A DNA stretch of 64,000 nucleotides from Candidatus Nomurabacteria bacterium (GCA_023898525.1 CP060227.1:493634-557633); one strand, 5' to 3'; numbered from the stretch's first letter, positions 27,258-60,488 are shown. The notes: generated from the sequence alone by a model not told the origin. Program-made: numbers and translations.

Positions 27258-28655
27258 TTATTTGCCTAAACTTATAGTTTTGTTTGCCAGCAGAAGTCTG
27301 GTTTTCAGACAGGATAATAGCTCTCGTTTTTCATGAGCTTGCCCTTCCCTCAGAATGTACTTAGCGTAGTTTCGTACCTCAATATCTTTCACTTTCACCT
27401 TCGTCTCTTTCTCACCAAGTAATCCAGCTTGAAACTTTTTATGTCGTTCAATCTCATCTTTAATTTTTTTGCGCATTCCGATTTCATCAAACGCTATCTT
27501 GTCCATCAGTCCAGCTAGTTGCTCGATCAAATCTTCTTCGTTTATGTACCCACATGTACAGTTTTTATCGTTATGCTTCGTGCACCCGTAATACACGTAC
27601 CGGTGTACGTTTCCGTTCTTTTGAGTTTTGTATTTCTCATCAGCAGTGATACCTGAGCCACATAGACCGCAACTCAGTAACTTGGTGAAGGCAAACTCTT
27701 TTGTCTGCCATCCGTCTGACCTGCTGTTTTGTACTTTGATCTTTTCCTGCACCTGATCGAAGAGCGCTTTGCTAATGATTGGTTCATGTATGCCCTTATA
27801 CCACTCACCACTGCCTTTCGGATATTCGAACGTTCCATAGTAGAAATGGTTTCGGAGAATCATATATAGATTGCCGAGGTATATCGGTTTGCCTGTTCTT
27901 GTCGTGAACTTCACTTCGTCACGAAGCCAGAAGTAAAGTTGTCTACCTGTTAGGTTCTCGTACGCGATCTTCTCAAACATCTTCTTTACAATCGGTGCTC
28001 TCTTGGGGTCTATGTCCTTGTGACACTTTTTGTCAGTGCGATTACTATTCAAATATCCCGTCGGTGCAATACATGGATAAAGACCCATCTCACACCGTGC
28101 TCGCATACCTCGCTTTACGTTCTGAACTTTGTTGTCATTTTCTAGTTTGGCTTGTGATCCAAGAATCATCAGTAGAAACTTTTCATTTGGGTTGTTGGTG
28201 AACTTCTGGCCGTACGTTCGTATCTCGTGCAGTGTTCCCGAGTCCATGAGATCCACTATTCGTCCGAGATCTCCTGCATTCCTTGAAATTCGATCAGGTG
28301 CCCATGTCAGTATGGCGTTGAACTTACCGCTATGGATATCTGCTACAAGCTCGTTGAACACTGGTCTCGTGCCAGCTTCTTTAGCGGAATGTGACTCCTT
28401 CCTGATTTCAGCCACCTCCAGATTATCTCGCTCCGCCATCTGCAGCATTTCTTTGATCTGAGAGTCGATAGAAAGCACTTGCATCTCCTCAGACTCCGTC
28501 GACTTACGTGCGTACAAGCAGTATTTTAGTGTTACTGGCGCTACTATTTTGCTCGACACGAACCCCTCTGGTGCTTCTGTTCTGCTCATTACCAACACTA
28601 ATGACGCAACCCCTCTAGGAAGTCTAGAGGGGTTGGTAGTTGGTAAGTTGATCAC
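27258..28655 (-). CDS. Large serine recombinase, paralog 1
   Basis: The catalytic-domain YARKSTESEE (nucleophile Ser), LSIDSQ, ILTWAPDRISRNAGDLG, and a C-terminal recombinase domain with a Cys-rich zinc ribbon. Confidence 0.85.
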   Translation of the reverse strand: MINLPTTNPSRLPRGVASLVLVMSRTEAPEGFVSSKIVAPVTLKYCLYARKSTESEEMQVLSIDSQIKEMLQMAERDNLEVAEIRKESHSAKEAGTRPVFNELVADIHSGKFNAILTWAPDRISRNAGDLGRIVDLMDSGTLHEIRTYGQKFTNNPNEKFLLMILGSQAKLENDNKVQNVKRGMRARCEMGLYPCIAPTGYLNSNRTDKKCHKDIDPKRAPIVKKMFEKIAYENLTGRQLYFWLRDEVKFTTRTGKPIYLGNLYMILRNHFYYGTFEYPKGSGEWYKGIHEPIISKALFDQVQEKIKVQNSRSDGWQTKEFAFTKLLSCGLCGSGITADEKYKTQKNGNVHRYVYYGCTKHNDKNCTCGYINEEDLIEQLAGLMDKIAFDEIGMRKKIKDEIERHKKFQAGLLGEKETKVKVKDIEVRNYAKYILREGQAHEKRELLSCLKTRLLLANKTISLGK

Positions 28656-29200
28656 TGAAAATCCTTCGCGACACCAGTCACATTCATACGGTAGTTCAAC
28701 ATTTCCTTGCTAATACCGTATTTTCTAGTCGCCTGAACATCCGTGAGTTTTTGTTTCTTTATATAAATACAAGCTTCTCGTGGAAGAAGTAGACAACCAG
28801 ACAACCACCCCGCTTCATCTTCTTCATCCTGATTGTACGAAGCATACAGCAACCCATCGATAACATAATTCTTTCCGCCCTCATGCCCCAAAATCAAATG
28901 AGACAGTTCATGAGCCAAGTTACTAGCCTGTCTTGCTTTCGAATGTGTCGGATTTAAAACGATCACCGCAAGATCATTCGACCTTATCGTCATAGCAGAC
29001 CAGCTGTCGGGATCATCTTCTGTCAAAGTCTTGCAACATTCTTTACTCACACCATTAATGTCTTCTGGCAACCAAATCCTAATGCCATGCAGCTCTGCCA
29101 GTACCCACATGTCTAGCGGGGAATAGGCCTGATGTCCTTGTCTCTTCCTTATGTTAAGCGCGGTTTTCTCCGCCCATGCTTTGAAACCACGTTTATACAT
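28652..29200 (-). CDS. ImmA/IrrE-family HExxH metallopeptidase
   Basis: HELSHLILGHEG. It lies directly downstream of an XRE HTH gene, matching the ImmR/ImmA or CapH/CapP pairing. Confidence 0.75.
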   Translation of the reverse strand: MYKRGFKAWAEKTALNIRKRQGHQAYSPLDMWVLAELHGIRIWLPEDINGVSKECCKTLTEDDPDSWSAMTIRSNDLAVIVLNPTHSKARQASNLAHELSHLILGHEGGKNYVIDGLLYASYNQDEEDEAGWLSGCLLLPREACIYIKKQKLTDVQATRKYGISKEMLNYRMNVTGVAKDFQ

Positions 29201-29209
29201 ACCGGGACC

Positions 29210-29584
29210 TTATTCACTCCCAATAGGCTGGAGTTTCGCCATCTCTTTTTGGGCAGCAATAATTACTTCTGCTAGAGCTTTAGCAGTAGTAGGTTTAACT
29301 TCTTTGTTTTTTCTAAAGTGGATTGCTGCCATTGGCGCTTCGTGCTTGGTCGCCTCACGAGTTTCGCCCTGCAGAAAAGCTCCTGCGTCAATCTCAAGCC
29401 ACGCACAGACTTTTTGGAAAGTATCTATGTCGGCCATATATCCTCGTTCGATACGTGACAAGGTCGCCGGACTAATCCCAATGTCCTTGGCCACAACACG
29501 AACACCCCGCCCGGCTCTCTTGGCGAAAACTTTTTCGCCAAGTTTTTCAAACCTGCGGGAGGTGTCTTTATTTGATTGTTTCAT
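29210..29584 (-). CDS. XRE-family HTH repressor-like protein
   Basis: AKDIGISPATLSRIERG. Confidence 0.75.
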   Translation of the reverse strand: MKQSNKDTSRRFEKLGEKVFAKRAGRGVRVVAKDIGISPATLSRIERGYMADIDTFQKVCAWLEIDAGAFLQGETREATKHEAPMAAIHFRKNKEVKPTTAKALAEVIIAAQKEMAKLQPIGSE

Positions 29585-29600
29585 ACATAATACAAAAATG

Positions 29601-29630
29601 TTTGACAGATAAGACGCTCATGCCTTATAC
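29601..29630 (+). promoter_or_regulatory. Sigma-70-like promoter TTGACA-17-TTATACT reading rightwards into the Ubl operon
   Basis: -35 TTGACA at 29601-29606 and -10 TTATAC(T) at 29624-29630. It lies in the divergent intergenic region next to the XRE gene start. Confidence 0.5.
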
Positions 29631-29720
29631 TGTGTCTTACATGTGAAACAGTACCGCGATTCCCTCTTGGGGTCAAGCGCACTGGCCACATGATTTAACC
29701 AATAAGCTTCTATTTATTAT

Positions 29721-29981
29721 ATGGAAACTTCAACAAAAGAGCACGCACAGCGTGGTCATAAAACAAAGCTCGTAACCGTCACCGTGGATGGTGTAGAGCA
29801 CAAAATTAAACGAGGAAAGTACACGGGTAAGGAGCTCAAGCAAGCATTTGGTATCGAGCCGAACCGTGAGCTGCTTGAAATCAAAGGTAAGAAGTTGGTA
29901 CCGATTGGTGATTGCGACGAGACCAATGTCTCAGGACATGAGGTGTTCGTGACACACGTATGTACCGGAACATCATCGTAA
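29721..29981 (+). CDS. Ubiquitin-like (beta-grasp, ThiS/MoaD-like) protein, 86 aa
   Basis: VTVTVDGVEHKIKRGKYTGKELKQAFGIEPNRELLEIKGKKLVPIGDCDETNVSGHEVFV resembles ThiS/MoaD. There is no C-terminal GG. It is the first gene of the Ubl-E2-JAB-E1 operon. Confidence 0.5.
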   Translation: METSTKEHAQRGHKTKLVTVTVDGVEHKIKRGKYTGKELKQAFGIEPNRELLEIKGKKLVPIGDCDETNVSGHEVFVTHVCTGTSS

Positions 29982-30319
29982 GCCGTATGGAGTTTGATCA
30001 AGAACAACTAAACGAGTTGGGTCACCAGTGTGAGCGAGTCGAAGTACTCGCTGACGGTCCTCATCATTTTATACTGCTCACCAATTTGGAATTGATTTCC
30101 GATGGGAAGGTAGTGGTGATGGATGCGTTACTGTGCCCATTCGCTCACACTGGTTATGCAACTCGTCTGTTCTTGGCAGAACCTTTGAGTCACAAACAGA
30201 AGAACTGGACAATCCATCAGCTTCTAGGGAGAAATTGGCATACATGGTCATGGAAAGGTGTCGAGGCCAACCAACGTTTGTCACAGATATTAGCGAGCCA
30301 TTTAACCGCTCTCATATGA
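29960..30319 (+). CDS. E2-like (UBC-fold) candidate, 119 aa
   Basis: The candidate catalytic Cys is in MDALLCPFAHTGY, and GPHHF sits in the position of an HPN-like motif. Its stop overlaps the JAB start (ATGA). The assignment is by operon position and size. Confidence 0.35.
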   Translation: MYRNIIVSRMEFDQEQLNELGHQCERVEVLADGPHHFILLTNLELISDGKVVVMDALLCPFAHTGYATRLFLAEPLSHKQKNWTIHQLLGRNWHTWSWKGVEANQRLSQILASHLTALI

Positions 30320-30843
30320 AGGTCGTCTACAAAATAAATGCTGATCTAATAGCAACAATTAAGGAAGACCTATCGCGGTTTCACCCGTATGCGTTTGAGC
30401 GTATAGGGTTCATCTCTAATTCTTGTGCGTACACGAGTGATGACACGCTCACCATTTATGCGCTAGGTTATACGCCGATACCCGATGATTGCTACATCCC
30501 TGACTACACGGTAGGAGTGAGGTTCGGTAAAGATGCAATTCAAAAGGCACTTGAACTCGCCTTCAATGAAGGAGGTCAGAACGTATCAGTCTTTCATGTC
30601 CACGAACACATGGGGTCAAATGTGCCTTGGTTCAGCCAGACTGATCTATTGAGTGCTGACGAATTTGTCCCAGACATATTCAACACCGCACCCGCAATGC
30701 CTCATGGCATTCTGGTACTCAACGAACGACATGCTTCAGGAAAAGTTTGGACTACCAAAGCAGAATCGCAGCCAATAGAAACCGTTATTAGTGTTGGTTC
30801 GCCAACAAAATACTCTAATTACCATGAACGAACGTTATTCTAG
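30316..30843 (+). CDS. JAB/MPN (JAMM) family metallopeptidase, deubiquitinase-like
   Basis: HVHEHMGSNVPWFSQTD approximates the JAMM HxHx7-8SxxD motif. Confidence 0.55.
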   Translation: MKVVYKINADLIATIKEDLSRFHPYAFERIGFISNSCAYTSDDTLTIYALGYTPIPDDCYIPDYTVGVRFGKDAIQKALELAFNEGGQNVSVFHVHEHMGSNVPWFSQTDLLSADEFVPDIFNTAPAMPHGILVLNERHASGKVWTTKAESQPIETVISVGSPTKYSNYHERTLF

Positions 30844-31651
30844 ACAAAGCTTCTTAGGTGAGGACAGCGACTCACTTTTCGCCCGCTTGAACGTCGCTAT
30901 TGTTGGTCTTGGCGGCGGCGGTTCACATGTGGCACAACAACTAGTTCATTTGGGTGTGAAAAATTTCATCCTAGTTGATCACGATTCGATTGAGGAAAGC
31001 AATCTGAATCGGTTAGTTGGCGGTACAGCGGAAGATGTACGAGCAGAGAGAAATAAGGTGGATATTCTTGCTCGAGTGATACGTAGCGTCAATGAAGATG
31101 CCGATGTCTCAGTTCAATCGCAAAAATGGCAAAACGCTGCTAACCTATTGCGCGAGTGTGACTGCATATTCGGTTGCGTTGATTCGCTAGACGAGAGGCG
31201 ACAGCTCGAAAATTTTGCTCGTCGCTTTATGATCCCTTACATTGACATCGGTATTGATGTAAGTAATACAGATGGACGTACTTACATAACTGGTCAGGTT
31301 GCAAAATCGATCCCATCGAAACCTTGTCTTTGGTGCCTCAACATATTGAACGAACAAAATGTAAACAAAGAAGTGCAAGAGTACGGTGCTGCTGGGGGAC
31401 AACCTCAAGTGGTGTGGGCGAACGGTATTGTTGCGTCGGCTGCAGTGGGAATGTTTGTCGAACTGTTTACACCTTGGAACCCTGATCAAAACCAAGTGCT
31501 TTGCCTAGACTACGATGGTAATAAACACACATTGGAAGTGAGTAACCGCATGCTCTTTCCAAGTGTGCAAGAGGGTATTTGCGAGCACTACCCAAAGGAA
31601 TTAGTGGGTGACCCTTTCTTTAAAATTAATAAGATTGTGAACCATGGATGA
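30824..31651 (+). CDS. ThiF/MoeB/HesA-family E1-like activating enzyme
   Basis: RYSRQ motif, Rossmann VAIVGLGGGGSH, catalytic-cysteine region CDCIFGCVD, CxxC zinc site KPCLWC. Confidence 0.8.
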   Translation: MNERYSRQSFLGEDSDSLFARLNVAIVGLGGGGSHVAQQLVHLGVKNFILVDHDSIEESNLNRLVGGTAEDVRAERNKVDILARVIRSVNEDADVSVQSQKWQNAANLLRECDCIFGCVDSLDERRQLENFARRFMIPYIDIGIDVSNTDGRTYITGQVAKSIPSKPCLWCLNILNEQNVNKEVQEYGAAGGQPQVVWANGIVASAAVGMFVELFTPWNPDQNQVLCLDYDGNKHTLEVSNRMLFPSVQEGICEHYPKELVGDPFFKINKIVNHG

Positions 31652-31904
31652 TTTAGCATTTAAGTACCCGAGAAGAATTCTGCAAGCACTACTGGTTGGT
31701 GCGATGGTGATTGCTATTGGCTGGGGTGTTATTACTTGGAACTCGCAAAATGCGATCAATCTCTGGACTAAGGAAGTAACGTTTATTACTCAACCGATCT
31801 TTAACTACTTCACAAACAAGATGGAACGTAGGGTGGAACGAGCTATGGAGCCGGTGACGGAGCAGCTCGAAGCGTCTGGTAACTCCGCTTCGCAAGACCA
31901 GTAA
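31644..31904 (+). CDS. Small two-TM membrane protein (MDDLAFKYP...) ending the Ubl operon; paralog of 48499..48729
   Basis: It overlaps the E1 stop (ATGGATGA). It is ~45% identical over 70 aa to the small ORF at 48499..48729. Confidence 0.5.
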   Translation: MDDLAFKYPRRILQALLVGAMVIAIGWGVITWNSQNAINLWTKEVTFITQPIFNYFTNKMERRVERAMEPVTEQLEASGNSASQDQ

Positions 31905-31924
31905 ACTAAGCTAAAGTGCTGACT

Positions 31925-32140
31925 AATAGCCCTATTTGAGCTATTATGTCCGTTACAACCAAATACGGTAGACCTAACCCATTGGCAACCCCAATGGTAT
32001 GGTCGAAAATCCCAAAGCACATAAAGAACCCGTCATCAGGGCTCGTGCTTTGGGTTATAGGGGGAAACTCCTATAGGAGCTTCGGCTCTCCTGGTGGCGG
32101 GCTTTTTGTACCTCACCAATTTATAAACCCAAAGCACAAT
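31925..32140 (+). ncRNA. Conserved ~200-nt noncoding element, copy A (candidate structured RNA / regulatory leader)
   Basis: It shares TATTTGAGCTATTATGTYCGTTACAA and ACCTAACCC with 60600-60790. It has co-varying stems CCCAAAGCAC/GTGCTTTGGG (copy A) against CCGTCCAAAGT/ACTTTGGACGG (copy B), and ends ...GGGCTTTTTG. Confidence 0.45.
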
Positions 32141-32144
32141 TTAT

Positions 32145-32492
32145 ATGGAATCATTTAAACTATCGTCTTCAGAAAACGAAGACAAGAACGAGGAAGGAAG
32201 TTCATCTGTAGCGAAGGTACTTCTCAGCCTCATTATTATGGGAGCAGGAGGTTGGTTCTTCTTCGGCGGAGGACTCGAACAACAAGCAGCTAATGACCTC
32301 GACAAAATCGAAGACCAGGTCGCTGCTGATTCAGTCCGACAATACAACCTCGCTAAGCAAGGTGGTGACGCAATTGAAATCTGCGTACAAGCAGGAATGG
32401 TCACAGCTGCGTATCTCCAAGCCGAAGACCAACCAAACTACCTAAAGTGGAAAGACATCGAGAAAGCAGACTGTGCTAGAGCAGGGATGTAA
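32145..32492 (+). CDS. Small membrane-anchored protein with acidic N-terminus
   Basis: One TM (VAKVLLSLIIMGAGGWFFFGGG); no motif. Confidence 0.35.
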   Translation: MESFKLSSSENEDKNEEGSSSVAKVLLSLIIMGAGGWFFFGGGLEQQAANDLDKIEDQVAADSVRQYNLAKQGGDAIEICVQAGMVTAAYLQAEDQPNYLKWKDIEKADCARAGM

Positions 32493-32497
32493 AAAAT

Positions 32498-32527
32498 AAA
32501 CCACTGACGGGCAGTGGTTTATTTTTA
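32498..32527. terminator. Bidirectional terminator AAACCACTG-ACGG-GCAGTGGTTT flanked by A6/T5
   Basis: It lies between convergent genes. Confidence 0.65.
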
Positions 32528-32965
32528 TCTTTCCCAATCATCAGGATGACCCCCATTTTCAATGAACTCTCGATATCGTTCAAGACGAGCAATAGTTGGA
32601 ATGGAAGCAATAGTGATTGGTGGTGTCATCTCTTCCAAGCGGTACGGCGAAGTAGTCTTCTTCGGATGATAGTCATCGTGACAGTTACTCAACTGAAACT
32701 TAATCGCTGGAAAGTAGCCTTCACTGATACTACGCATAAGCTGGTTGTGCGCCAAGTCATTTACATAACTCTTGCCGTCACTGATTGCCTTATCCGCCTG
32801 TACCGCAAAATCTTCATCCTCCTTCACCCAGCGATAGTACGTCTCACGGCTCAAGCCAGCCTTCTTGCAAGCAAAGCTCACGTTACCCGATTCACACAGA
32901 GACTGGAGTACTTTCTCTTGCTGTTTCAGAATCCGCTCCTGTATCCGCTTCTCGCGCTTGTCCAT
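32525..32965 (-). CDS. Phage terminase small subunit-like HTH protein (degenerate copy)
   Basis: FACKKAGLSRETYYRWVKEDEDF resembles the TerS HTH, and the gene at 62675..63070 is homologous in layout. Confidence 0.45.
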   Translation of the reverse strand: MDKREKRIQERILKQQEKVLQSLCESGNVSFACKKAGLSRETYYRWVKEDEDFAVQADKAISDGKSYVNDLAHNQLMRSISEGYFPAIKFQLSNCHDDYHPKKTTSPYRLEEMTPPITIASIPTIARLERYREFIENGGHPDDWER

Positions 32966-33707
32966 TACCAGTAAGTTTTAGCCAGCGAACAACGATAGTC
33001 TCGCAGTATTCTGGGTCCATCTCGACCGTAATACACTTACGCTTCGTATGCTCGCAGGCAATCAAGGTTGAGCCACTGCCACCAAACGGGTCATAGACGG
33101 TGTCACCAACCTTCGTGCTGTTAAGAATCAGTCTGCGGAGTAATCCGACTGGTTTCATCGTCGGGTGGAGCTTGCTTTGCGACGGTTTCGGGTAGAACGC
33201 AACTGACTTGTCTTTGCCACGCTTGAAGTCGTGCGTACCTTTCCAACCGTAGAGAATGAGTTCGTGTTGCGGTAGGTAGTCGAGTCGTCCCACGATTGCT
33301 CGATCCTTCACCCAGACGATAAGTTGGGCAATTTTCATGCCTGCCTCAAGACAGGCCTGACGGAGAGCGAAGATCATCTTGTCGGAGTTGAAGATGTAGA
33401 TGCTGTTTTTCTTGGACAGCTTTGAGAGTGCTGGAGAAAGCCAGCTCTTAGTGAATTCAACGTACTGTTGGTCGGACATAAATCCGTCATTGGAGATGTC
33501 TTTATCCTTGGCAATCTTGCCAATGCCACGCTTGCTTTCAGCGTAATCGACACCGTACGGCGGGTCAGTTAGAAGGAGGTCGATGTTCCCGTAGACAGAG
33601 AGGTCTACCTTGGAGGAATCACCGCAGATGAGAACGTGCTCACCAAGACAGATGATGTCCCCTGTCTTAATTGATCTTGGTAGCTTTGGTACCGGTGAAT
33701 TTTTCAT
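32892..33707 (-). CDS. DNA methyltransferase (N6-adenine/N4-cytosine, DPPY family)
   Basis: DIICLGEHVLICGDS and LLLTDPPYGVDYA. Confidence 0.8.
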   Translation of the reverse strand: MKNSPVPKLPRSIKTGDIICLGEHVLICGDSSKVDLSVYGNIDLLLTDPPYGVDYAESKRGIGKIAKDKDISNDGFMSDQQYVEFTKSWLSPALSKLSKKNSIYIFNSDKMIFALRQACLEAGMKIAQLIVWVKDRAIVGRLDYLPQHELILYGWKGTHDFKRGKDKSVAFYPKPSQSKLHPTMKPVGLLRRLILNSTKVGDTVYDPFGGSGSTLIACEHTKRKCITVEMDPEYCETIVVRWLKLTGNGQAREADTGADSETARESTPVSV

Positions 33708-34941
33708 AGCGGTTGATGATTACCTGAACAAAGACGGGGTTGAGCTCGACCAGAAACGCATTGCGCTTCATTTGCTCACACGCAAGGAGGGTTGAACCTG
33801 AGCCACCACAGAGATCGAGCACGTTATCGCCGATCTTGGTGCAACGGTTGAGTGGTCGCTCATGCAAAGACAGAGGTTTCTGCGTTGGGTGATCGTAGGA
33901 TTGTCCTGCGTCACGCTTAGCGAGCCAGATATCAATCATGTCAGTGACATCATCGATGGTAGCGTTACCGATGCCGATATCTTTATTCAGAATCTCGGCG
34001 AGTTTGGTGTGCTTTTTAGAGAGGTATGGCTTACCAACCGTGCCGTAAAGGGCTGGTTCGTAGATTTTCGAGAACGCTACTTGTGGCGTTGGGTTGATAC
34101 CGTTCTTGATCCAGAGGGCGGTGCGTTTGTATGCGATACCTACCTCAACGAAGAGGTTTTGAAGCATGCCGACATACGCTGAATCGCAGTACCAGATGTG
34201 GTGCGAGTCCTTAGCTGAAACGTCCACCGCATTTTGCATCAGTGTGCGTACGAAGGTGCGGTACTCAGCGTCTGTCTTCTTATCATCAACGACACCACCG
34301 TAGCTTTTCTTGCCCCCGATGCCTTTGTCGTACGAGAGTCCGATGTTGTATGGAATATCTACATACGACATGTCGATTGTGGTCTCACCAACAAGCTTCT
34401 TCACTGTCTCGGGGTTCGTGCTGTCACCACAGATAAGATAGTGGGTACCGAGCTTGAAGAAGTCACCAGACTTAATGTCAGTCGTCTCGGCTTTCTTGAG
34501 CTCTTTCTCAGGATTAAACTCATCGTCATCAATCTCCAGCACATCGTCCCAGATGTCAGAGAGGTCTCCGTCATCGAAGCCGATGTCCAAGAGGAACTCA
34601 GTGTCAAAATCCTTCAACAGTTCGTAGTCCCACGAGCCTGTGTTCTTATTGGAGCGTAGGAGATACTCTTCAAATTCCTTCTTGGTAAGGGTGCGGTTTG
34701 GTACTCGCACGTCAATTTCTTCTTGCCCGCGACCGAGTAGTTGCATCACCTTCAATCTGGCGTGTCCTGCCACGATAGTGTTATCAGTGTTGATCGCAGG
34801 AATCTCCGCTAGAGAGAACTTGGTAATGCTCGCTTCAAGGTCTTTACGCTGTTTGTCCGACAAGGTGCGAGGGTTCTTGTCGTACGGCACGAGATCATCG
34901 ACTTTGCGTGTCTCTGTGTGCCAAGTAATTTTATTACTCAT
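33667..34941 (-). CDS. ParB-like nuclease domain fused to a DNA methyltransferase
   Basis: N-terminal ParB/Srx fold (DLVPYDKNPRTLSD), then HYLICGDS and DIPYNIG methyltransferase motifs. Confidence 0.8.
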   Translation of the reverse strand: MSNKITWHTETRKVDDLVPYDKNPRTLSDKQRKDLEASITKFSLAEIPAINTDNTIVAGHARLKVMQLLGRGQEEIDVRVPNRTLTKKEFEEYLLRSNKNTGSWDYELLKDFDTEFLLDIGFDDGDLSDIWDDVLEIDDDEFNPEKELKKAETTDIKSGDFFKLGTHYLICGDSTNPETVKKLVGETTIDMSYVDIPYNIGLSYDKGIGGKKSYGGVVDDKKTDAEYRTFVRTLMQNAVDVSAKDSHHIWYCDSAYVGMLQNLFVEVGIAYKRTALWIKNGINPTPQVAFSKIYEPALYGTVGKPYLSKKHTKLAEILNKDIGIGNATIDDVTDMIDIWLAKRDAGQSYDHPTQKPLSLHERPLNRCTKIGDNVLDLCGGSGSTLLACEQMKRNAFLVELNPVFVQVIINRYEKFTGTKATKIN

Positions 34942-35009
34942 AGTAGATTGCGAGGGTGTTTTATATTAATGGTCCCTCTACCATCTACTGCTGAGATTTC
35001 AGCGACTAG

Positions 35010-35726: not shown

Positions 35727-35883
35727 ATACTCTAATTATACAACCGACTTTTACAGCGATAATATCCTTGTTTTAAGCCATATCCGTATTTTCAAACCGT
35801 TCTGAAAATGCTCTTAAAATAGCTGTTTGGGTGTCAGATTTGTAACATGTGGCTTTACTGAGCCATCGGCATATAATCACTTT

Positions 35884-37233: not shown

Positions 37234-37341
37234 TAAATAAGTCCCTACTGATAGGGGTCAGAAAATAGCGACATCAGTCGCTCGGAAACCCTTGTGGGGC
37301 TTGCTGGGTGAAAATCCGCAACGCCAAGGGGGCACACAGGC

Positions 37342-37384
37342 AAAACAAACAAACGACTCTTTTAAAAGAGTCGTTTGTTTGTTT
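37342..37384. terminator. Perfect palindromic terminator AAACAAACAAACGACTCTTTT-AA-AAGAGTCGTTTGTTTGTTT
   Basis: It lies 110 nt after the recombinase stop. Confidence 0.6.
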
Positions 37385-37477
37385 TAGAAACTGAACTGCT
37401 TCAGTTTCGTGCCTGTGTGCCGGGCGGAGACATGTTTTCTTCTCCTTCCCAGAGAAGAAAACAGTCGAGCCGGGGTC

Positions 37478-37660: not shown

Positions 37661-37770
37661 CGTCATGAATCGAAGGGATATTGGATGTGTGACAACACGA
37701 CAATATCCCAGGCTCGAAGAGGATTCCTGCTGGGGACACCGAAAGAATCAGGAATCCCATTCACCCCCAA

Positions 37771-45916: not shown

Positions 45917-45923
45917 GTTTAGA

Positions 45924-52667: not shown

Positions 52668-52673
52668 AGTAAT

Positions 52674-53843: not shown

Positions 53844-53844
53844 A

Positions 53845-54282
53845 TTACTTTTGAATTTTCTCTAAGTCAGCTGGCATATACCGCACCACGTTACCTTGCT
53901 TATCGACTGAAAAGACATGAAGCAAGAGCTTCTTGGCAATTTGATATGGAATACGTTTGATAGCCTTGTCGGCTGATTTTTTAGGCAGAGCAATACCGTA
54001 GTAGTAGCGTGTAGAACCAGAAGTGTTCATGCGAGTAATGATCTGGCCAAGTGAGTAAATAAAAGCCACCTCTTCACTTGAAGAATTATTTGAACCCTTA
54101 CACTCAATAAGGTAATAGCGTGAGTATCGTGTGTGGACCGCTTTAATATCGACTCCTTTCTCTCGTAGGGTAGCCACCTTAACTAACCGCCAATGATGTT
54201 TCGACAGCCATTCAATCACTCTTGTTTGCACAAAGTCTTCGGTGATGTCTCGTGAGGTATCTTTTTTCTTAGCATTACTCAT
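53845..54282 (-). CDS. Small PD-(D/E)xK nuclease-fold protein (Mrr/NERD-like)
   Basis: GVDIKAV...YYLIECKG fits D...ExK. Confidence 0.45.
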   Translation of the reverse strand: MSNAKKKDTSRDITEDFVQTRVIEWLSKHHWRLVKVATLREKGVDIKAVHTRYSRYYLIECKGSNNSSSEEVAFIYSLGQIITRMNTSGSTRYYYGIALPKKSADKAIKRIPYQIAKKLLLHVFSVDKQGNVVRYMPADLEKIQK

Positions 54283-54284
54283 AT

Positions 54285-55178
54285 TTAATTGTCGATAGCT
54301 ATTACTTGGGAAGGCACATTGTCACCGTTTTCCTTAGGTGCCATGATGACCTGCTTGTAGTGATTGCAGGCAGCGTTCAAATATTCCTGTAACTCGTCTA
54401 GATTAACAAGTCCGTTTTTTATATCGTCTGGATGTATGGCTATGATGAGTCTTTCACAAACATTAATTTGCTTATTAGCTTCAATGTAACTATCAATAAT
54501 CTCCTTGGCTGTCGTCATCTTAGTCAGCGACGCATTACGCCCATGGCCAGAATTTACTAGAGGAATTGTCACATATTTATTTCTACCCGATTCATTGCCA
54601 ATAAAATCCCAAACTGAAGCAAGCGAAGTAATCAGGTCATCAATACTTGCCTTAACACGATTGTTTTCTAGTTTGTGTGAGTTTGCTAGTAAATAAAATC
54701 TCTTATTGTTATTTTCCACCTCAACTGTCGTACCAATTGGATTTTCAGTATTTTGAGAAACTTTATCTTTTATATCAGCCTCTAAATGCTCGTGCCTCCC
54801 ACCGTAGTAGTCACAAATTAACTTGTTTTGTAGACTATTTGCCTTTGCAACGTTCCCGCCTAAAGTCAGGTCAAAGTGATCATTTATTGGTACTATCAAA
54901 GCACCTTTATTTTTAAATGCGTCTCCAACTTTAACTTCAATAAAATTATCTTTTTTGCGAATCCTGCTTGAAAAAGAAGTTTTCGGTTTATTCTTTAAAA
55001 TTGCAATAATAAAAATTAGCACCATTATTGGTAATGCAAACCACGGTTCTTTGAAAAGATGATCAACAACCCCGCTGGTCATGTAGCTACTCATCTCAAC
55101 GGCCAACCAAAATAAACCTAAGCCAGTTACTGTGTCAGCTACAATCAGTTTCCATTTTTTGATCCAGCGTAAAATCAT
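54285..55178 (-). CDS. thsA: Thoeris type II ThsA-like effector: N-terminal TM helices + C-terminal Macro domain
   Basis: ALIVPINDHFDLTLGGNVAKA aligns with the macro motif AIVNAAN-x6-GGGV, and SGHGRNAS with the second macro glycine-rich loop. Two N-terminal TM helices. Confidence 0.55.
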   Translation of the reverse strand: MILRWIKKWKLIVADTVTGLGLFWLAVEMSSYMTSGVVDHLFKEPWFALPIMVLIFIIAILKNKPKTSFSSRIRKKDNFIEVKVGDAFKNKGALIVPINDHFDLTLGGNVAKANSLQNKLICDYYGGRHEHLEADIKDKVSQNTENPIGTTVEVENNNKRFYLLANSHKLENNRVKASIDDLITSLASVWDFIGNESGRNKYVTIPLVNSGHGRNASLTKMTTAKEIIDSYIEANKQINVCERLIIAIHPDDIKNGLVNLDELQEYLNAACNHYKQVIMAPKENGDNVPSQVIAIDN

Positions 55179-55678
55179 AGTCCCAGATTTGTATATATCG
55201 AATTACCGTAATGGTATGCACCTGTCTTACCTTGTGCTCGATATGACTTGTGATCTTCTGGCCATTCGCGAATGGCTTTTGCCACAATTGATTTATTGAA
55301 ACTTACGTGCACCGCAAGTTCCCCAGTCAAAATGGCAGGACACAAATCATCCTTATCTCTTTTACCGTTTAGATTGACAACTACTATAGGAATGTCTTTT
55401 TTGATTGCTTGTTCGATTTCCCAGCGAACAAATTTGTATAGATATTTTGTGTTGTTACCCACCAAAAGTAGAAAGACACGGGTATTGGAAAGACGTTCCC
55501 GCAACTTTGCCTTAATTGTCTCCTCAGAAGAATAGGGCATTAGGTTGTTTAGATCATGTGCGTCATAAAAACCAAATGCACTGCCGTCTGTCTTTCGCCA
55601 AGCCTGCATTAGTCGGTAGTAACGAATATCGTTATCAGCATCAAACGCAACGTATGCTTTGTTAGTATAGGTGCTCAT
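55175..55678 (-). CDS. thsB: Thoeris ThsB-like TIR-like domain protein (DUF1863 type)
   Basis: KAYVAFDADND...RVFLLLVGNNTKYLYKFVRWEIEQAIKKDIPIVVVNLNG matches the MTH538 TIR-like pattern. It overlaps thsA by 4 nt. Confidence 0.6.
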   Translation of the reverse strand: MSTYTNKAYVAFDADNDIRYYRLMQAWRKTDGSAFGFYDAHDLNNLMPYSSEETIKAKLRERLSNTRVFLLLVGNNTKYLYKFVRWEIEQAIKKDIPIVVVNLNGKRDKDDLCPAILTGELAVHVSFNKSIVAKAIREWPEDHKSYRAQGKTGAYHYGNSIYTNLGL

Positions 55679-55679
55679 A

Positions 55680-57017
55680 TTATTTGCTATTTTTAGTTGC
55701 TATATCTTTAACATCTTTCACGCTCTCAATAACTTCATTTTTCATCTTTTTATAGAACCCTTCCACATGAAAGCGTTCTGAAACACGGTCAATTATTGTT
55801 TCGCCCCGACCAAGATGCTCTGCGGGATTATGTTCAATAGCTTCGAGAAGTATTTGAGCCAATTTGTCCTTATTTGCAGTGTCTAACTGATATGATTTGT
55901 CTCCCGTATTAAACAATAGATACATCTCTACGACTCTAAGTTTGTGATTATATTCTTCAAATAAGCGTTTACGTTGAGAGATATTTCTTTGCCCGTACCA
56001 TGCGATCCAGATTAAAGGAATTGAAATAATGGTCTTTACGTAGATCAGCTCAAGTGCAGAGGGAGTGACACCTTCAGCAGTGAGACTATTGAGAACTATT
56101 TCTGCAGTCTTCTCATTCACAAAAATGAGAGACACACCTACAAGAGGTAATATGAACATCGCATAGTTCATAACTGAGCCAACGTGACGACCTAAAATAT
56201 TATGAAAAAATATAAGGACATTTTCGATGTGTGCACCTTTAATGAATTCTTTTCGCTTGAACTTTGAATATTCAGATTTAGATTCTGTGTAAGCGTTTAG
56301 TAAAGTTCTGGTGGTTGCATCAGATAGAAGAGAGTTTACATCTTCACGCTTAGTATCAATGTCAGTCCTCAGATCTTTAAGATACTTTCTTGTTTCTTCT
56401 ATTTCTGGAGTTACTTCGGTGTCAATTTTTTTCTTAAAAAGCTCCGCTTTCTTAATGTTAGCTTCAAGATTTTGAATTTCACTATTCTCACCCTCAGGAG
56501 CATCAAACAACTCTTCGTATTTTTCGGTGATTTCTGTGTATATTCTTTTTGTCTCTTCTTCAATGCCGTCAGTCTCTGTGAGTTTTGTATAGAAATCACG
56601 AATTTCCTTTGCTTTACCTGAGGTTCCATCACCGCCTAGCAAATCAACATAAAAATCTGTGATTTTTTGTTGAGAATCCTTTATATCAGTTTGTATTGAA
56701 TCTGGGTTTGAAATCAGTTCAGCGTGATAGGCCTTAATAGCATCAACTTGTGTTTGTAGTGCATTAACAACAGAAGTATCTGCGATAGATCCGTTGGGAA
56801 AGATTTTTGTGTACGCATTATTAATATCCTGAATTTTTTGTTCTATGGCAGGCAAAACTGCTTCAGACCCATTATCTCCTTCAAAAAACTTTTTGTAGAG
56901 TTCATTGATTGATCCTATTTCTTCAAGCGATGCCTTGATCAGATCCCACAGTTCTTCCTTAGTTGGAGATTTTGCGCTTGGGTCTATTTGCGAAAGTAGT
57001 TCGTTAAGCTTGCTCAT
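55680..57017 (-). CDS. Hypothetical 445-aa protein: long N-terminal coiled coil plus 3-4 C-terminal TM helices, embedded between hsdM and Thoeris
   Basis: No catalytic motif. TM segments include YAMFILPLVGVSLIFV and IISIPLIWIAWYG. Confidence 0.4.
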   Translation of the reverse strand: MSKLNELLSQIDPSAKSPTKEELWDLIKASLEEIGSINELYKKFFEGDNGSEAVLPAIEQKIQDINNAYTKIFPNGSIADTSVVNALQTQVDAIKAYHAELISNPDSIQTDIKDSQQKITDFYVDLLGGDGTSGKAKEIRDFYTKLTETDGIEEETKRIYTEITEKYEELFDAPEGENSEIQNLEANIKKAELFKKKIDTEVTPEIEETRKYLKDLRTDIDTKREDVNSLLSDATTRTLLNAYTESKSEYSKFKRKEFIKGAHIENVLIFFHNILGRHVGSVMNYAMFILPLVGVSLIFVNEKTAEIVLNSLTAEGVTPSALELIYVKTIISIPLIWIAWYGQRNISQRKRLFEEYNHKLRVVEMYLLFNTGDKSYQLDTANKDKLAQILLEAIEHNPAEHLGRGETIIDRVSERFHVEGFYKKMKNEVIESVKDVKDIATKNSK

Positions 57018-57020
57018 AAA

Positions 57021-58529
57021 TTATTTGATACCTAATTCTTTTAAATAAACTTCCATCTGTTTTTCCAGCTTCTTTAGCTCAGGTTCAAGCTTTGCCAGCT
57101 CTTTCAAGTTCGCTTCAATGTCTACAGGCTCCTCTTCCTCAAAGGTATCTACATACCGTGTGATGTTCAGGTTAAAATCATTCTCCTCAACCTCAGCCAA
57201 GTCAACCTTGCGAGCAAACTTTTCTACATCTTTCCGCTTCACGAATGTATCGTAAATTTTATTGATGTGGTCTTCGGTAAATATGTTTTGAGCTTTGCCA
57301 GCTTTAAACTCTTTCGATGCTTCAATAAAGAAGATGTCTTTCTTCATTTCGTTAGCGCCACCTTTCTCACGTGAGCGGTCGATTACTAAGACTGCAACTG
57401 GAATACCCGTGGTTTGGAATAGTCCAGCAGGTAAACCAATTACCGCATCAATGATGTTTTCTTTAATTAGTTGCTCACGAATTTTTCCCTCTGCACCGCT
57501 TCGGAAGAGAACACCATGAGGAACAATCACTGCTACACGACCAGTCTTAGGTTTAGCGGTTTCGATCATGTGGGTAATGAATGCAAAATCCCCCTTGTCT
57601 TTAGGTGGTACTCCTCGCCAGAAGCGATTGTACGCATCAGACTCTGCATGCTCTGCACCCCACTTCTTCAGGGAGAATGGTGGGTTTGCTACAACTACAT
57701 CGAAGTGCATGAGTTGGTCATTTTCAACTAAGAGCGGGTTATTTAGTGTGTCGCCCCATTCAATACGGGCTGAGTCTTTACCATGCAAAAACATGTTCAT
57801 ACGAGCAAGCTGATAGGTAGCACCAGTAGATTCTTGCCCATAGAGCGCATAGTTCTTTGAACCTTTCTTTTCTACTTCTTCACCAGCTAAAAGCAGAAGG
57901 CCGCCCGAACCACAAGCAGGGTCGGCTATACGGTCACCTTCTTTAGGTTGCGCTAGCATGGCTACTAACTGAGCTACGGACCTCGTCGTGAAAAATTCAC
58001 CCGCCTTTTTTCCAGCAGCTGCACCGAAGCGCTCAATCATGTACATGTATGAGTTTCCAATGATGTCATCTCCAACATCAGACAGGTCGATTTTTGCGAA
58101 ATCTTGAATCAAGTTGCGAAGCATCTTATTTCGCTGTGGTAGTTTGCCAAGCAGTGCTTCTGAATTGAAATCAACACTAAACACACCTTCGAGCTTATCG
58201 CTGTTAGCGTCTTCAATACGATGGAGGGCTTTGTTTATCTCATCGCCGATATTATCTTCTTCAATTTTGCTGTAGATGTAGTCAAAAGATGATTTGGGAG
58301 GTAGGTAGAAACGGTCGAGTTTCATTTTCTCCTCAATACGCTTTTCGTCATCGCCAAATCGCTCTTTGTACTCTTGGTACTTCTTTTTGTTTTGATCACT
58401 CAAATACTTAAAAAACAACATCGGCAACGCATAGTCCTTATACGTTTCAGCCGCCAATTGACTGCGGGAAGAATCAGCCGCTGACCAGAGTACTTTATTG
58501 AGTTCTTCTTGTGTGAATTTTTTAGTCAT
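57021..58529 (-). CDS. hsdM: Type I R-M N6-adenine methyltransferase subunit (second system)
   Basis: VVANPPFSLKKWG. Confidence 0.9.
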   Translation of the reverse strand: MTKKFTQEELNKVLWSAADSSRSQLAAETYKDYALPMLFFKYLSDQNKKKYQEYKERFGDDEKRIEEKMKLDRFYLPPKSSFDYIYSKIEEDNIGDEINKALHRIEDANSDKLEGVFSVDFNSEALLGKLPQRNKMLRNLIQDFAKIDLSDVGDDIIGNSYMYMIERFGAAAGKKAGEFFTTRSVAQLVAMLAQPKEGDRIADPACGSGGLLLLAGEEVEKKGSKNYALYGQESTGATYQLARMNMFLHGKDSARIEWGDTLNNPLLVENDQLMHFDVVVANPPFSLKKWGAEHAESDAYNRFWRGVPPKDKGDFAFITHMIETAKPKTGRVAVIVPHGVLFRSGAEGKIREQLIKENIIDAVIGLPAGLFQTTGIPVAVLVIDRSREKGGANEMKKDIFFIEASKEFKAGKAQNIFTEDHINKIYDTFVKRKDVEKFARKVDLAEVEENDFNLNITRYVDTFEEEEPVDIEANLKELAKLEPELKKLEKQMEVYLKELGIK

Positions 58530-59106
58530 GTTGTTTTGTAAGGTTAGTAAATGTTGCTTCGACGATTTGTTGTTTTAAATACTGGCGACGATCGACAATT
58601 GATTGTTGGGCTTGAATGTTTTCATGCAGTGCTACGATTGCTTTTTGCTTCTCTAGCTCTGGCACTGGAATTTTTATGTGTATGAGTTCCCGCCGGGGTA
58701 AGGCCCCAATGTATGAACCAGTGACGATATTAGCCAGTGAGTCTTGTCCCTCTTTTGAATTGAGGTAGTGAGATAGAAACTCTGGAAGCACCTTGCTCGT
58801 ACTTATTCGAATAATGTGTACAGATGCCGATGCAATAACATTCTGAGCATCAGACATGAAGACAGCTGCACGAAAGGCACCAGCCTTCATACCTCGTGCC
58901 ACAATTAGAACATCATTTTTTTGGAGGTACCTGTCGTCAGGAGGGAGGTCAAGCGATATCTTGGTCAATGAACTCACATCCGAGACTGGGACACCTTGTA
59001 CCAAGTCACGAGCCTGAAATACCAGTGTATTGCCGTTGCGCGTTTCTTCAATAGCTCCGCGAAAAGCGTAGCCTGGAGTTACTTGGGCAATATCTGACAA
59101 TTTCAT
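58522..59106 (-). CDS. hsdS: Half-size type I R-M specificity subunit (single TRD)
   Basis: 194 aa. Its C-terminal conserved helix (ELEKQKAIV) is typical of HsdS. Confidence 0.65.
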   Translation of the reverse strand: MKLSDIAQVTPGYAFRGAIEETRNGNTLVFQARDLVQGVPVSDVSSLTKISLDLPPDDRYLQKNDVLIVARGMKAGAFRAAVFMSDAQNVIASASVHIIRISTSKVLPEFLSHYLNSKEGQDSLANIVTGSYIGALPRRELIHIKIPVPELEKQKAIVALHENIQAQQSIVDRRQYLKQQIVEATFTNLTKQHD

Positions 59107-59153
59107 ATGCAGTAGTATATGTTACTGCGTAATATTTGTAAAGTACCCTACCT

Positions 59154-60488
59154 CTAGTTAGGCTGACTTTGTAATTTAACAACCTTGTTATTCATGGTTA
59201 TTTTCGAGTTAAAGCATGAAAGTATCTCTCGCTTTTCCTCGATAGTACCGTCTTTGAGTAAGAACTTTATGTAGCTTTTCGCATCTATCTCACTTGCATC
59301 AGTACTTGTCTTCTCACCCAAAAGGGTCTGATTGAATTTCTTGTACCGAGCAACCTCAGCTTTAATTCGCTTGATCACTTCGCCCTCGCTGAACGAAGCG
59401 ACATCGACAAGCTTTTGAAGTTGTTTGATGAGATCAGTCTCATTTAAGTAACCACACTTACAGTGCTTGTCCCGTGCTTTGGTGCAGGTGTAATAGACAT
59501 GAGCGTTAATCTTGCCGTTCTTAAGCTTTTTGTATTTCTCATCAGCACTAATACCAGATCCGCACAAACCACAAATCATCAGCTTGGTGAAAGCGAACTC
59601 TTTTTCTTGGCGAGTCTTTAATTCGTTTCCTTTCAGTTGTTCTTGGACTAGGTCAAATAATTCTTTCGTGATGAGTGGTTCATGTCGCCCTTGATACCAG
59701 TTGCCACTGTTGCGAGGATATTCAAAGACACCGTAGTAAAAGTGATTCTCAAGAATTCGGTAAATATTGCCGAGACTTAAATGCTTTTTACTAGGTAGAG
59801 CACGGAAGTTTAATTCAAACCGAAGCCAGTTATAGACCTTGCGACCAGACCACTTTTCATACGCGACCTTCTCAAATACCTTTTTAATCACAGGTGCACG
59901 TTCTGGGTCGATAAGTGTCTCGCATTTACGATCCATTCGTTTTTCTTTCACGTACCCTGTCGGTGCTGGAGCTGGCCACAACCCCATCTCCACCCGAGCC
60001 TTAAGGCCACGCTTCACATTAATACTCTTGTTATCGTTCTCCAGCTTGGCTTGGGAACACAGAATCATGAGGAGAAACTTTTCACTTGGATTATTGGTGA
60101 ATGTCTGTCCATGTGTGCGTATCTCAACGAGTAGTTTTTGGTCCATGAGGTCAACCAACTCACCGAGGTCACCAGCATTACGACTGAGTCGGTCAGGGTG
60201 CCACACAATAATCCCATTAAATTTCTCTCTTCGTATATCTTCTAGTATTTCTCTGTATACAGGTCGCTGGCCAGATGCTTTGGCGGAATGAGCTTCACGG
60301 CGAACTTCTACTATATCGAGACCTTCTTTCTCAGCCATCTGCATCATTTCGTTCACTTGTGATTCAATAGAAAGTGCTTGGCGCTCATCTTGCTCGGTAC
60401 TTTTGCGAGCGTATAAAACATAACGCACCGCTATAGGTGGCGGTGCGATTGAGTGGCTCATTCGAGCGGATATCTGTTGTGTTTCCAT
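59154..60488 (-). CDS. Large serine recombinase, paralog 4
   Basis: YARKSTEQDE, LSIESQ, IIVWHPDRLSRNAGDLG. Confidence 0.85.
   Translation of the reverse strand: METQQISARMSHSIAPPPIAVRYVLYARKSTEQDERQALSIESQVNEMMQMAEKEGLDIVEVRREAHSAKASGQRPVYREILEDIRREKFNGIIVWHPDRLSRNAGDLGELVDLMDQKLLVEIRTHGQTFTNNPSEKFLLMILCSQAKLENDNKSINVKRGLKARVEMGLWPAPAPTGYVKEKRMDRKCETLIDPERAPVIKKVFEKVAYEKWSGRKVYNWLRFELNFRALPSKKHLSLGNIYRILENHFYYGVFEYPRNSGNWYQGRHEPLITKELFDLVQEQLKGNELKTRQEKEFAFTKLMICGLCGSGISADEKYKKLKNGKINAHVYYTCTKARDKHCKCGYLNETDLIKQLQKLVDVASFSEGEVIKRIKAEVARYKKFNQTLLGEKTSTDASEIDAKSYIKFLLKDGTIEEKREILSCFNSKITMNNKVVKLQSQPN

Follow-up and report, generated by a model that had tools for sequence, protein, structure and literature searches.

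A 64,000-nucleotide stretch of the genome of a Candidatus Nomurabacteria bacterium, a member of the Patescibacteria or Candidate Phyla Radiation (CPR), contains four genes for large serine recombinases (LSRs), Rec1 to Rec4 (GCA_023898525.1, CP060227.1:493634-557633; hereafter the window). We propose, with a probability of about 0.7, that these genes mark tRNA-targeting LSR elements whose backbone comprises a ParB-methyltransferase (ParB-MTase), the terminase proteins TerS and TerL and the RNA LOOT, that would carry defence cargo in two slots flanking the LSR gene, and that would occupy two sites in the window. Two parts of this proposal are well supported by comparison with related loci: that Rec1 to Rec4 are the predicted integrases of horizontally mobile CPR elements aimed at tRNA genes, and that probable hotspots for defence cargo exist on either side of the LSR gene. 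A first-pass annotation of the window had read the 33-kb span holding the four genes as a single exchange hotspot for immune cassettes, driven by the recombinases. Diverged LSRs beside defence cargo and cassettes that vary between genomes are indeed what we found, but the single hotspot did not hold up, and LSR-driven swaps gained no support. The span consists of two tRNA-anchored islands, A and B, with 8 kb of core genes between them (Table 1).

A strain-variable island and four diverged recombinases

The boundaries of island A are given by a second genome of the same population, the metagenome-assembled genome (MAG) GCA_020632175.1 (L003; related loci are designated here by L numbers). Window positions 8382-19536 are matched in this MAG at 99.99% identity and positions 37328-48244 at 100%, and the two matched stretches are directly joined, with island A absent as one unit. 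The comparison of strains or MAGs that had been suggested for this locus thus reveals a presence/absence polymorphism between near-identical genomes. A three-way comparison of the attachment (att) sites identified an 8-bp core, GGGGGCAC, shared at the junctions: attB of the island-free allele reads TGCTGGGGGCAC followed by ACAGGC, attL of island A reads TGCTGGGGGCAC followed by CCAATAGTGAGACC (abridged, GGGGGCAC followed by CCAATAGTG), and attR reads GCCAAGGGGGCAC followed by ACAGGC. We found no internal copy of GGGGGCAC within island A. The arm abutting tRNA-Arg reads CCCTCTCAGTAGGTCTCACTATTGG in reverse complement. Because the 8-bp junction is clean and the island is polymorphic in the population, we infer that whole elements would be moved by LSRs that catalyse their integration and excision at the core in the tRNA. 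The strain-variable island at the tRNA-Arg(tct) site has a canonically oriented Rec1 with a restriction-modification (R-M) cassette on its tRNA side, a decayed backbone, and a second LSR, Rec2, at the opposite end.

Within island A, a 12-bp direct repeat, CCAATAGTGAGA, brackets cassette 1 (19534-19545 and 27209-27220; E=6e-4). The GC content of this cassette is below that of the backbone; in a profile of the window, cassettes have a GC fraction of 0.37-0.40 versus 0.43-0.49 for the LSR and backbone parts. The backbone remnant beside Rec2 corresponds to a conserved module, present in 31-36 of 80 related loci. In the first-pass annotation each cargo was bounded by one LSR, and this methyltransferase (MTase) and TerS remnant was assigned to Rec2; it belongs instead to a Rec1-type backbone. 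Directly beyond attR, DNA present in both genomes holds a perfect palindrome (37342-37385), two ~99-bp tandem units that each begin with ACTTAGCAAAAT, and a 3' fragment of tRNA-Arg(tct) (37722-37743). An older element has probably left this DNA behind.

The genes at 37771-45587 that split the span in two include a third tRNA gene, tRNA-Arg(gcg) (44974-45046). An exact 22-nt copy of its own 3' end lies 188 bp away, at 44786-44807, and has the form of a scar of an earlier integration at this tRNA.

The four LSR genes are present where the first-pass annotation had placed them, as full-length, intact open reading frames (ORFs) of 444-465 aa. All four products contain the Resolvase catalytic domain (PF00239; E=1e-18 to 1e-23) and the Recombinase domain (PF07508), and the zinc ribbon (PF13408) scored above the cut-off in Rec1, Rec3 and Rec4. 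The zinc ribbon of Rec2 reached 23.0 bits, below the cut-off of 25.3, with its cysteines conserved. All four likewise keep the YARKS motif with its catalytic serine and the pocket motif DR(L/I)SRN, so the reported sharing of these motifs and of the C-terminal zinc ribbon stands, that of Rec2 being below threshold. By this domain content Rec1 to Rec4 are predicted serine integrases. The closest entry to them in the PDB is SPbeta SprA/YokA (9dxh, E=3e-14).

The 60-70% identity first reported between the copies applies to the catalytic/alphaE part in the N-terminal third (61-69%) but not to the proteins overall, which are 44-57% identical in pairwise comparisons at the amino-acid level, with DNA-binding parts at 31-57%. 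This divergence bears on whether the LSR genes could be collapsed or mis-joined repeats of the assembly, as might be suspected from Logan contigs that end inside or near LSR genes and at the borders of island A. The copies are not the near-identical duplicates that such an artefact would produce, and the duplicate reading was rejected on this ground. In addition, an NCBI MAG and several Logan contigs give the same junctions at 100% identity, and Rec3 is identical in two NCBI records (MCB9810670.1 and USN88287.1), one of which comes from a contig of 1.09 Mb. An assembly artefact is therefore extremely improbable, and as proteins the four are, on sequence grounds, ordinary LSRs and genuine diverged paralogues. 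Two features of individual copies recur in relatives: the pairing of ImmA with an LSR is seen again in L008, and a CCTTGTGGnGCTTG motif in the 3' flank of Rec2 is also found in L227, ~79% identical over 183 aligned C-terminal residues.

Table 1. Coordinates of the features discussed, numbered from the first nucleotide of the window
Feature	Position	Strand	Description	Source
tRNA-Arg(tct)	19460..19536	+	predicted integration target of island A; core GGGGGCAC at 19526-19533	ARAGORN, Rfam
Island A	19534..37335		17.8 kb; Rec1 and Rec2; attR core 37328-37335
Element-side att arm	19534..19560		abuts tRNA-Arg; homologous to LSR-tRNA junction arms of Rec1-like loci L020 and L009
Cargo cassette 1	19546..27208	-	T5orf172/PDC-S57, 383-aa unknown protein, HsdR, HsdS, HsdM, small helix-turn-helix (HTH) protein	Pfam, PADLOC
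Rec1	27258..28655	-	LSR, 3' end towards tRNA (family-typical); in operon with ImmA/IrrE and HTH repressor
ImmA/IrrE	28652-29200		in Rec1 operon
HTH repressor	29210-29584		in Rec1 operon
ThiF/E1-like operon	29960..31651	+	cargo between orphaned LOOT copy and Rec1	Pfam ThiF 3.8e-32
LOOT copy A	31971..32089	+	80.2 bits	RF03000
Backbone remnant	32525..35726	-	TerS-like gene, N6/N4 MTase, ParB-MTase, 238-aa protein; TerL missing	Pfam, PHROGs
Rec2	35884..37233	+	most divergent LSR, distal end of island A; stop codon 95 bp from attR core
Older scar	37336..37743		in both genomes; 44-bp perfect palindrome, two ~99-bp units, tRNA fragment
Core genes	37771-45587		PilM, DedA, tRNA-binding protein, RuvX, PGI, GDH; tRNA-Arg(gcg) on - strand
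Island B	tRNA-Ser(tga) at 45828 to beyond window		Rec3 and Rec4; right end outside window
tRNA-Ser(tga)	45828..45916	+	anchor of island B	ARAGORN, Rfam
bla mini-insertion	45917..47066	+	class A beta-lactamase, 45980/46067-47020
Rec3	47144..48502	+	LSR co-directional with tRNA-Ser; preceded by 45-bp palindrome with T-run (47081-47125)
Cargo cassette 2	48767..59106	-	YgjP, HsdR, HsdS, 145-aa protein, ThsA(Macro), ThsB(TIR), 445-aa protein, HsdM, half-HsdS
Rec4	59154..60488	-	island B's canonical LSR, with LOOT upstream and TerL/TerS/MTase past it
LOOT copy B and box	60564..60756	+	CTTAGCAAA box 60564-60573; LOOT 60641-60756, 71.2 bits	RF03000
Island B backbone	61255..63765	-	TerL phrog_38 (1.2e-72), TerS phrog_4044, MTase; continues past window end	PHROGs, Pfam

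A family of elements built on a terminase backbone and LOOT RNA

To place the islands in a wider context, we mapped homologues of the window's proteins, together with tRNA genes, in 227 related loci (80 from GTDB, 67 from IMG/VR and 80 from metagenomes). GTDB species representatives gave at least 600 matching stretches, with 587 confirmed relatives among the matches listed; the 80 loci kept were mostly from Patescibacteria. Rec2 or Rec3 used as a single query gave no match in IMG/VR, and an alignment query found the loci. At E<=1e-20 Rec3 has at least 8000 homologues, the named ones being from CPR. Look-ups by exact protein gave no hit for Rec3 (entered with two start codons), Rec4 or TerL.

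A recurrent gene order was apparent, consisting of one or more MTase genes (ParB-MTase), TerS, TerL, a variable stretch, the LSR gene, a second variable stretch and a convergent tRNA gene. The MTase-TerS-TerL module lies upstream of the LSR in 24-36 of the 80 GTDB loci and in most IMG/VR loci. A tRNA gene was found within 3 kb downstream of the LSR stop codon in 30 of 57 GTDB loci, on the opposite strand in every case, and within 3 kb upstream in none of 60. The independent metagenome set gave the same picture (15 of 32 downstream, all convergent; 0 of 42 upstream), bringing the combined counts to 45/89 downstream, all convergent, and 0/102 upstream. In nine GTDB loci the tRNA starts only 65-136 bp past the LSR stop codon. 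Targets include tRNAs for Gln, Ser, Arg, Lys and Leu. Rec1 has this canonical orientation relative to tRNA-Arg, and Rec4 relative to tRNA-Ser, with 7.7 kb and 13.2 kb of extra DNA, respectively, between the LSR stop codon and the tRNA.

The two variable stretches differ widely in length (29 bp to 9.3 kb from TerL to the LSR; 66 bp to 5.6 kb from the LSR to the tRNA). ORFs in the slot between the LSR and the tRNA encode DNA methylases, ResIII, AbiEii-like AAA_21, HamA, DruA, SduA_C, HepT, MamI and MutH, and those in the slot between TerL and the LSR encode ResIII, N6_Mtase, Eco57I, HSDR_N, reverse transcriptases (RVT), SNase and PLD. Island A lacks genes for capsid, portal, tail and lysis functions within its mapped ends and so is not an intact temperate prophage. 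Judged from its gene content, the conserved backbone is small and satellite-like.

The cores identified are short. A single-LSR mini-element of 3.7 kb in L067 has a core of 16 bp, and this core and the 8-bp candidate core of island A are both compatible with LSRs. Both are shorter than the cores of 25-76 bp that have been reported for tyrosine integrases at tRNA genes in mycobacterial prophages.

Several relatives have two LSR genes, among them six IMG/VR contigs. In one of these relatives, of 24 kb (L100 and L127; IMGVR_UViG_3300014208_000734), a tRNA gene lies at each end, in the order tRNA-Ser(tga), outward-facing LSR, a cassette resembling the second R-M cassette of the window (65-82% amino-acid identity), TerL-TerS-MTases, a second outward-facing LSR and tRNA-Arg(gcg); the two-LSR layout is as in island A. 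This contig has no terminal repeat, and circularity is thus unsupported. In two further loci (L157 and L158; Ga0265297_10010873 and Ga0265297_10000141) two head-to-head LSR genes stand ~170-230 bp apart, beside an inverted MTase-TerS-TerL module.

The backbone also includes an RNA. The window contains two copies of LOOT (RF03000; gathering score 46.4), both full-length matches to model positions 1-121 and homologous to each other over ~190 nt. Rec4 has copy B 153 bp upstream, in divergent orientation. Copy A is orphaned: the E1 operon and the genes for ImmR and ImmA separate it from Rec1, and no LSR gene starts within the usual ~150 bp. Each copy has a small ORF beside it (115 aa and 154 aa, the latter between Rec4 and TerL), and these two ORFs are not homologous. 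We scanned the 147 GTDB and IMG/VR loci with a covariance model built from seven LOOT copies and detected LOOT in 27/80 and 16/67 of them, respectively. Of 44 hits in these other loci, 21 lie 82-245 bp upstream of an LSR gene and divergent from it, and a further eight are located 289-555 bp upstream of the gene that heads the backbone operon, that for the ParB-MTase, so that 29 of the 44 are divergent from an LSR or operon head.

A sequence box, CTTAGCAAA or CTTCGCAA, read by eye in 37 loci, is found ~70-95 nt upstream of LOOT in about two-thirds of them, and in many a TAnnAT-like hexamer follows ~17 nt past the box. This arrangement informs the interpretation of ACTTAGCAAA, which occurs five times in the window where 0.26 would be expected (21647, 37484, 37583, 50614 on the - strand, and 60564). 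The recurrence of this motif beside Rec2 and Rec4 had been noted before; of the positions then given, 37484 is correct, and the copies put at 37571 and 60566 lie at 37583 and 60564. A role as att site is not supported. The copy beside Rec4 belongs to the box conserved upstream of LOOT and the copies at 37484 and 37583 are outside island A, in DNA common to the island-free MAG. The motif beside Rec4 is probably a promoter box for LOOT. A simple promoter scanner made no call on the CTTAGCAAA-N17-TAnnAT element or on the copies at 37484 and 37583, and the promoter assignment therefore draws on conservation in other loci.

Cargo turnover between LSR genes

At the tRNA-Ser(tga) site of island B, an LSR of the Rec3 clade is next to the tRNA and meets the canonical Rec4 tail-to-tail, with a type I R-M/Thoeris cassette filling the gap. 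This cassette 2 sits between the convergent Rec3 and Rec4 genes, and an independent Logan contig (L154) gives the same cassette. ThsA_Macro and ThsB_TIR were detected at 6.7e-31 and 9e-19 (PADLOC: ThsA 1.1e-37, ThsB 1.5e-70), which identifies a predicted Thoeris system with a ThsA effector and a TIR-domain ThsB; the exact ThsB protein is also on record in sequence databases. Both cassettes are, by gene content, predicted type I R-M loci with HsdR, HsdM and HsdS. Of the cargo listed at the outset, type I R-M 1, the beta-lactamase (class A) and type I R-M 2, in which Thoeris is embedded, were borne out. The remaining item, a ubiquitin-like (Ubl) operon, was not: in E1-E2 models of PADLOC it is the E1 part that the E1-like protein of island A matches, searches detected neither a Ubl nor an E2 or JAB protein beside it, and neighbouring ORFs have no Pfam or PADLOC match. 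A ThiF/E1-like protein is thus all that is found there of a Bil- or Cap2-type system.

Orthologues of Rec3 occur in L155 (89% identical), L156 (84%) and L237 (72%), in each case ~100-120 bp downstream of tRNA-Ser and co-directional with it. In all three a second LSR gene faces the orthologue convergently; that of L156 has 80% identity to Rec4. The gap between the convergent stop codons is -23 nt in L237 and 20 bp in L105, but in L155, L156 and the window it reaches ~10 kb. The inserts differ: L155 has HsdR, two unknown proteins, Ymh, HsdS, HsdM and Fic, and L156 has T5orf172, HsdR, Shedu (SduA_C), HsdS, HsdM and Fic. Orthologous Rec3/Rec4 pairs thus bracket different cassettes, or none, in different genomes, which agrees with the cassette swapping first proposed. 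Core proteins of the hosts of these orthologues are only 25-62% identical to those of the window, far below the LSR identity (80-89%); the LSR genes have therefore moved horizontally, and orthologous recombinase pairs bracket different immune cassettes in distantly related hosts.

The same tRNA-Ser adjacency to a Rec3-clade gene is found in L005, L155, L156 and L237/L238. In L155, L156 and L237 no beta-lactamase gene (bla) lies between tRNA-Ser and the Rec3-clade gene; in the window, bla is a separate small insertion rather than cargo bounded by an LSR. It is flanked by imperfect direct repeats of ~45 bp (45908-45950 and 47067-47110) that include the last 9 nt of tRNA-Ser. GCA_020632175.1 carries both bla and Rec3. 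L005 has tRNA-Ser, a bla 100% identical to that of the window and a single LSR gene; its DUF5673 neighbour has 41% identity to the corresponding window protein (156 aa, encoded at 45117-45587). The LSR gene of L005 is a chimera. Its first 180 nt are identical to Rec3, its nucleotides 480-1050 are 72-87% identical to Rec4, and over the recombinase and zinc-ribbon domains its product has 90-97% amino-acid identity to Rec4. In sequence terms, the mosaic is evidence that LSR lineages have recombined with each other at the conserved alphaE region.

We considered whether the Rec3/Rec4 pair could be a dedicated platform that captures, swaps or inverts defence operons site-specifically at the tail-to-tail junction. 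The pair occurs in at least five unrelated hosts, with no insert or with ~10 kb exactly between the stop codons; an N3-C4 hybrid such as that of L005 is the predicted product of inversion between the two genes; and a cassette of the R-M 2 type is reversed relative to its own LSR in L074/L100. However, the cassettes between convergent LSRs showed no conserved boundary motif, repeat or att-like sequence at their ends. L005 lacks the reciprocal hybrid, and its Rec4-like part has only ~80% nucleotide identity, implying a donor from another lineage. The cassettes of L155 and L156 share one end and differ inside, which resembles turnover of genes within an R-M operon. We consider such a platform unlikely. 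Equally improbable is the larger scheme in which the pair would be an integron-like docking platform exchanging whole defence operons, LOOT would control recombinase expression or directionality, and these elements would be the main vehicle of immune genes in CPR. The proposal that LSRs catalyse cassette exchange thus lacks a motif at the cassette ends, and the L005 mosaic fits homologous recombination equally well. Direct capture of cassettes by LSRs is possible, and the boundary sequences give no support to it.

Instead, under the tRNA-targeting element model, cargo would turn over through repeated integration and decay at the same tRNA, which fits the relics and repeats, and through homologous recombination in which conserved LSR genes would serve as portable homology, which fits the L005 chimera.

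Serial integration could also be taken further, as in staphylococcal cassette chromosome (SCC) elements, with each LSR marking an independent small element that integrated successively into the same tRNA end. The islands would then be tandem composites with decayed inner junctions, movable or lost as one unit. The 12-bp repeat around cassette 1, the ~45-bp repeat with the tRNA-Ser end around bla, the relic tRNA fragments at 37722 and 44786, the single-LSR mini-element of L067 and the six two-LSR IMG/VR contigs are all in keeping with such accretion. Yet island A has no internal copy of the 8-bp core, and the 12-bp repeat does not contain the tRNA core, so that the junction it marks did not arise by the canonical crossover. 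Tandem canonical insertions would also place Rec2 and Rec3 in the reverse of their actual orientations, and the 23-nt overlap of the convergent LSR ORFs in L237 leaves hybrid att sites no space between them. We regard full accretion of this kind as possible but doubtful.

A different role for the LSRs, as phase-variation recombinases that shuffle type I specificity subunits, is suggested by the half-hsdS gene adjoining Rec4 and by similarly placed LSRs in L074, L100 and L150. The hsdS genes of cassette 2 (52674-53843 and 58522-59106) are on the same strand with no inverted repeats between them, and this reading was rejected for that reason. Moreover, the dominant association of the family is with tRNA genes and terminase, and the hsdS shufflons known so far depend on small invertases or on tyrosine recombinases. 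A shufflon is thus very improbable.

Other arrangements within the cassettes recur. Type I R-M operons hold other defence genes between hsdS and hsdM or hsdR, namely Thoeris in the window (52674-58529), Shedu SduA_C in L156 (11960-19321) and Ymh in L155 (11358-19914), so that the interior of the hsd operon looks like a second-order hotspot. A T5orf172/MUG113 gene (GIY-YIG-like; PADLOC PDC-S57) caps the hsdR end in the window (19626-20180, - strand) and in L156 (11349-11957, - strand).

Several points weigh against tRNA-targeting, phage-derived elements as the explanation of both islands. Recombinase activity of Rec1 to Rec4 is predicted from the genes alone, and no junction of a circular form was seen. 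The right end of island B is outside the window, and the geometry of tRNA-Ser followed by a co-directional Rec3 departs from the canonical one. For island A, Rec1 and Rec2 both remain candidate integrases, the Rec1-type arm at attL pointing to the one and the proximity of the Rec2 stop codon to attR (95 bp) to the other, and no inverted symmetry between its two element arms was obvious by eye. At the far ends of the family's elements, copies of at least 11 nt of the tRNA 3' end upstream of LSRs yielded one convincing case, L067; few long copies are expected if the cores are short. Upstream of the MTase nothing is conserved, with at most 6 of 36 loci sharing any family, and we identified no candidate recombination directionality factor. 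Finally, capsid, portal and tail families are absent from the 25 most frequent families of either slot; as the backbone has no structural genes, the label phage-derived stands on the terminase and ParB-MTase only.

Relation to known elements and further features of the window

CPR bacteria have, to our knowledge, tiny genomes that are reportedly short of much of the classical defence and mobile-element repertoire, and little has been described of the routes by which R-M and other immune systems reach them. The locus opens up a very large family of recognisable elements. It also gives the orphan LOOT RNA a genomic context and is a source of numerous natural LSR/att pairs whose tRNA targets are predictable, a matter of practical interest for genome engineering. 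Were the platform hypothesis true, terminase-bearing LSR elements would be the main vehicle of immune-gene flow in CPR. In the part of the literature that was searched, we found no serine integrase family that systematically targets tRNA ends, no ParB-MTase/TerS/TerL/LSR backbone without structural genes, no association with LOOT, and no convergent LSR pair bracketing variable R-M-centred cassettes. One study describes R-M-bearing islands, and the words 'recombinase', 'integrase' and 'tRNA' do not occur in its main text (PMC12455944).

The tycheposons of Prochlorococcus use tyrosine recombinases in 474 of 501 cases, with att sites of ~40 nt (Hackl et al., bioRxiv 10.1101/2020.12.28.424599). 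Like the CPR elements, they are cargo-carrying or satellite-like, inhabit a streamlined genome and use few tRNA targets, including tRNA-Ser(tga) and tRNA-Arg(tct); in both cases partial tRNAs are left behind, elements stack side by side and decay to remnants, and islands build up by the tRNA. Unlike tycheposons, the CPR elements have an LSR, a core of 8-16 bp, the ParB-MTase/TerS/TerL and LOOT backbone, and mostly defence cargo. The family thus appears to be a CPR counterpart of tycheposons, with serine integrases aimed at tRNA ends.

SCC and SCCmec elements are cassettes mobilised by LSRs (CcrAB, CcrC) at the 3' end of rlmH, with ccrA and ccrB in tandem and acting together. SCC composites have several ccr LSRs per island, direct repeats around sub-cassettes, and beta-lactam resistance and type I R-M as cargo. 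The islands described here resemble them in having LSR cassettes at one conserved 3' end, repeats and similar cargo, and they share LSR domains with Ccr proteins. They differ in targeting tRNA genes rather than rlmH and in LSR orientations that do not fit simple tandem insertion, and we know of no SCC element with a terminase or non-coding RNA backbone.

Among phage integrases, SPbeta SprA/YokA, TP901-1, Bxb1 and phiC31 have the same domain architecture, and Rec1 is accompanied by an ImmR/ImmA-int lysogeny module. Textbook phage serine integrases enter protein-coding genes, tRNA ends being the usual territory of tyrosine integrases. Phage satellites, such as PLE (elements that resemble phage-inducible chromosomal islands) and phage-inducible chromosomal islands (PICI), and P2/P4-like hotspots are small, lack capsid genes, and combine packaging genes with variable anti-phage cargo at fixed positions by the integrase. 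In gene content the CPR elements fit satellites, with an integrase and packaging genes but no structural genes. Their combination of TerL in addition to TerS, a ParB-MTase and LOOT is not known from PLE and PICI satellites, and we found neither a helper phage nor a replication module for them. The PLE of V. cholerae is reported to be an LSR-bearing satellite (PMC6002521).

The left part of the window bears further traces of mobile elements. A gene for an rve-family integrase/transposase (10690-11622, + strand) adjoins tRNA-Leu(gag) (11775-11859, - strand). A diversity-generating retroelement occupies 8027-10438, with a reverse transcriptase gene (8027-8914, - strand) and a bAvd-like ORF (8892-9302). 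Its template and variable repeats are a 121-bp pair (9427-9547 and 9858-9978) with 86% identity, the variable repeat lying within the 3' end of an ORF at 9851-10438 (- strand), and 16 of the 17 differences between the repeats fall at a T on the + strand, corresponding to A on the coding strand.

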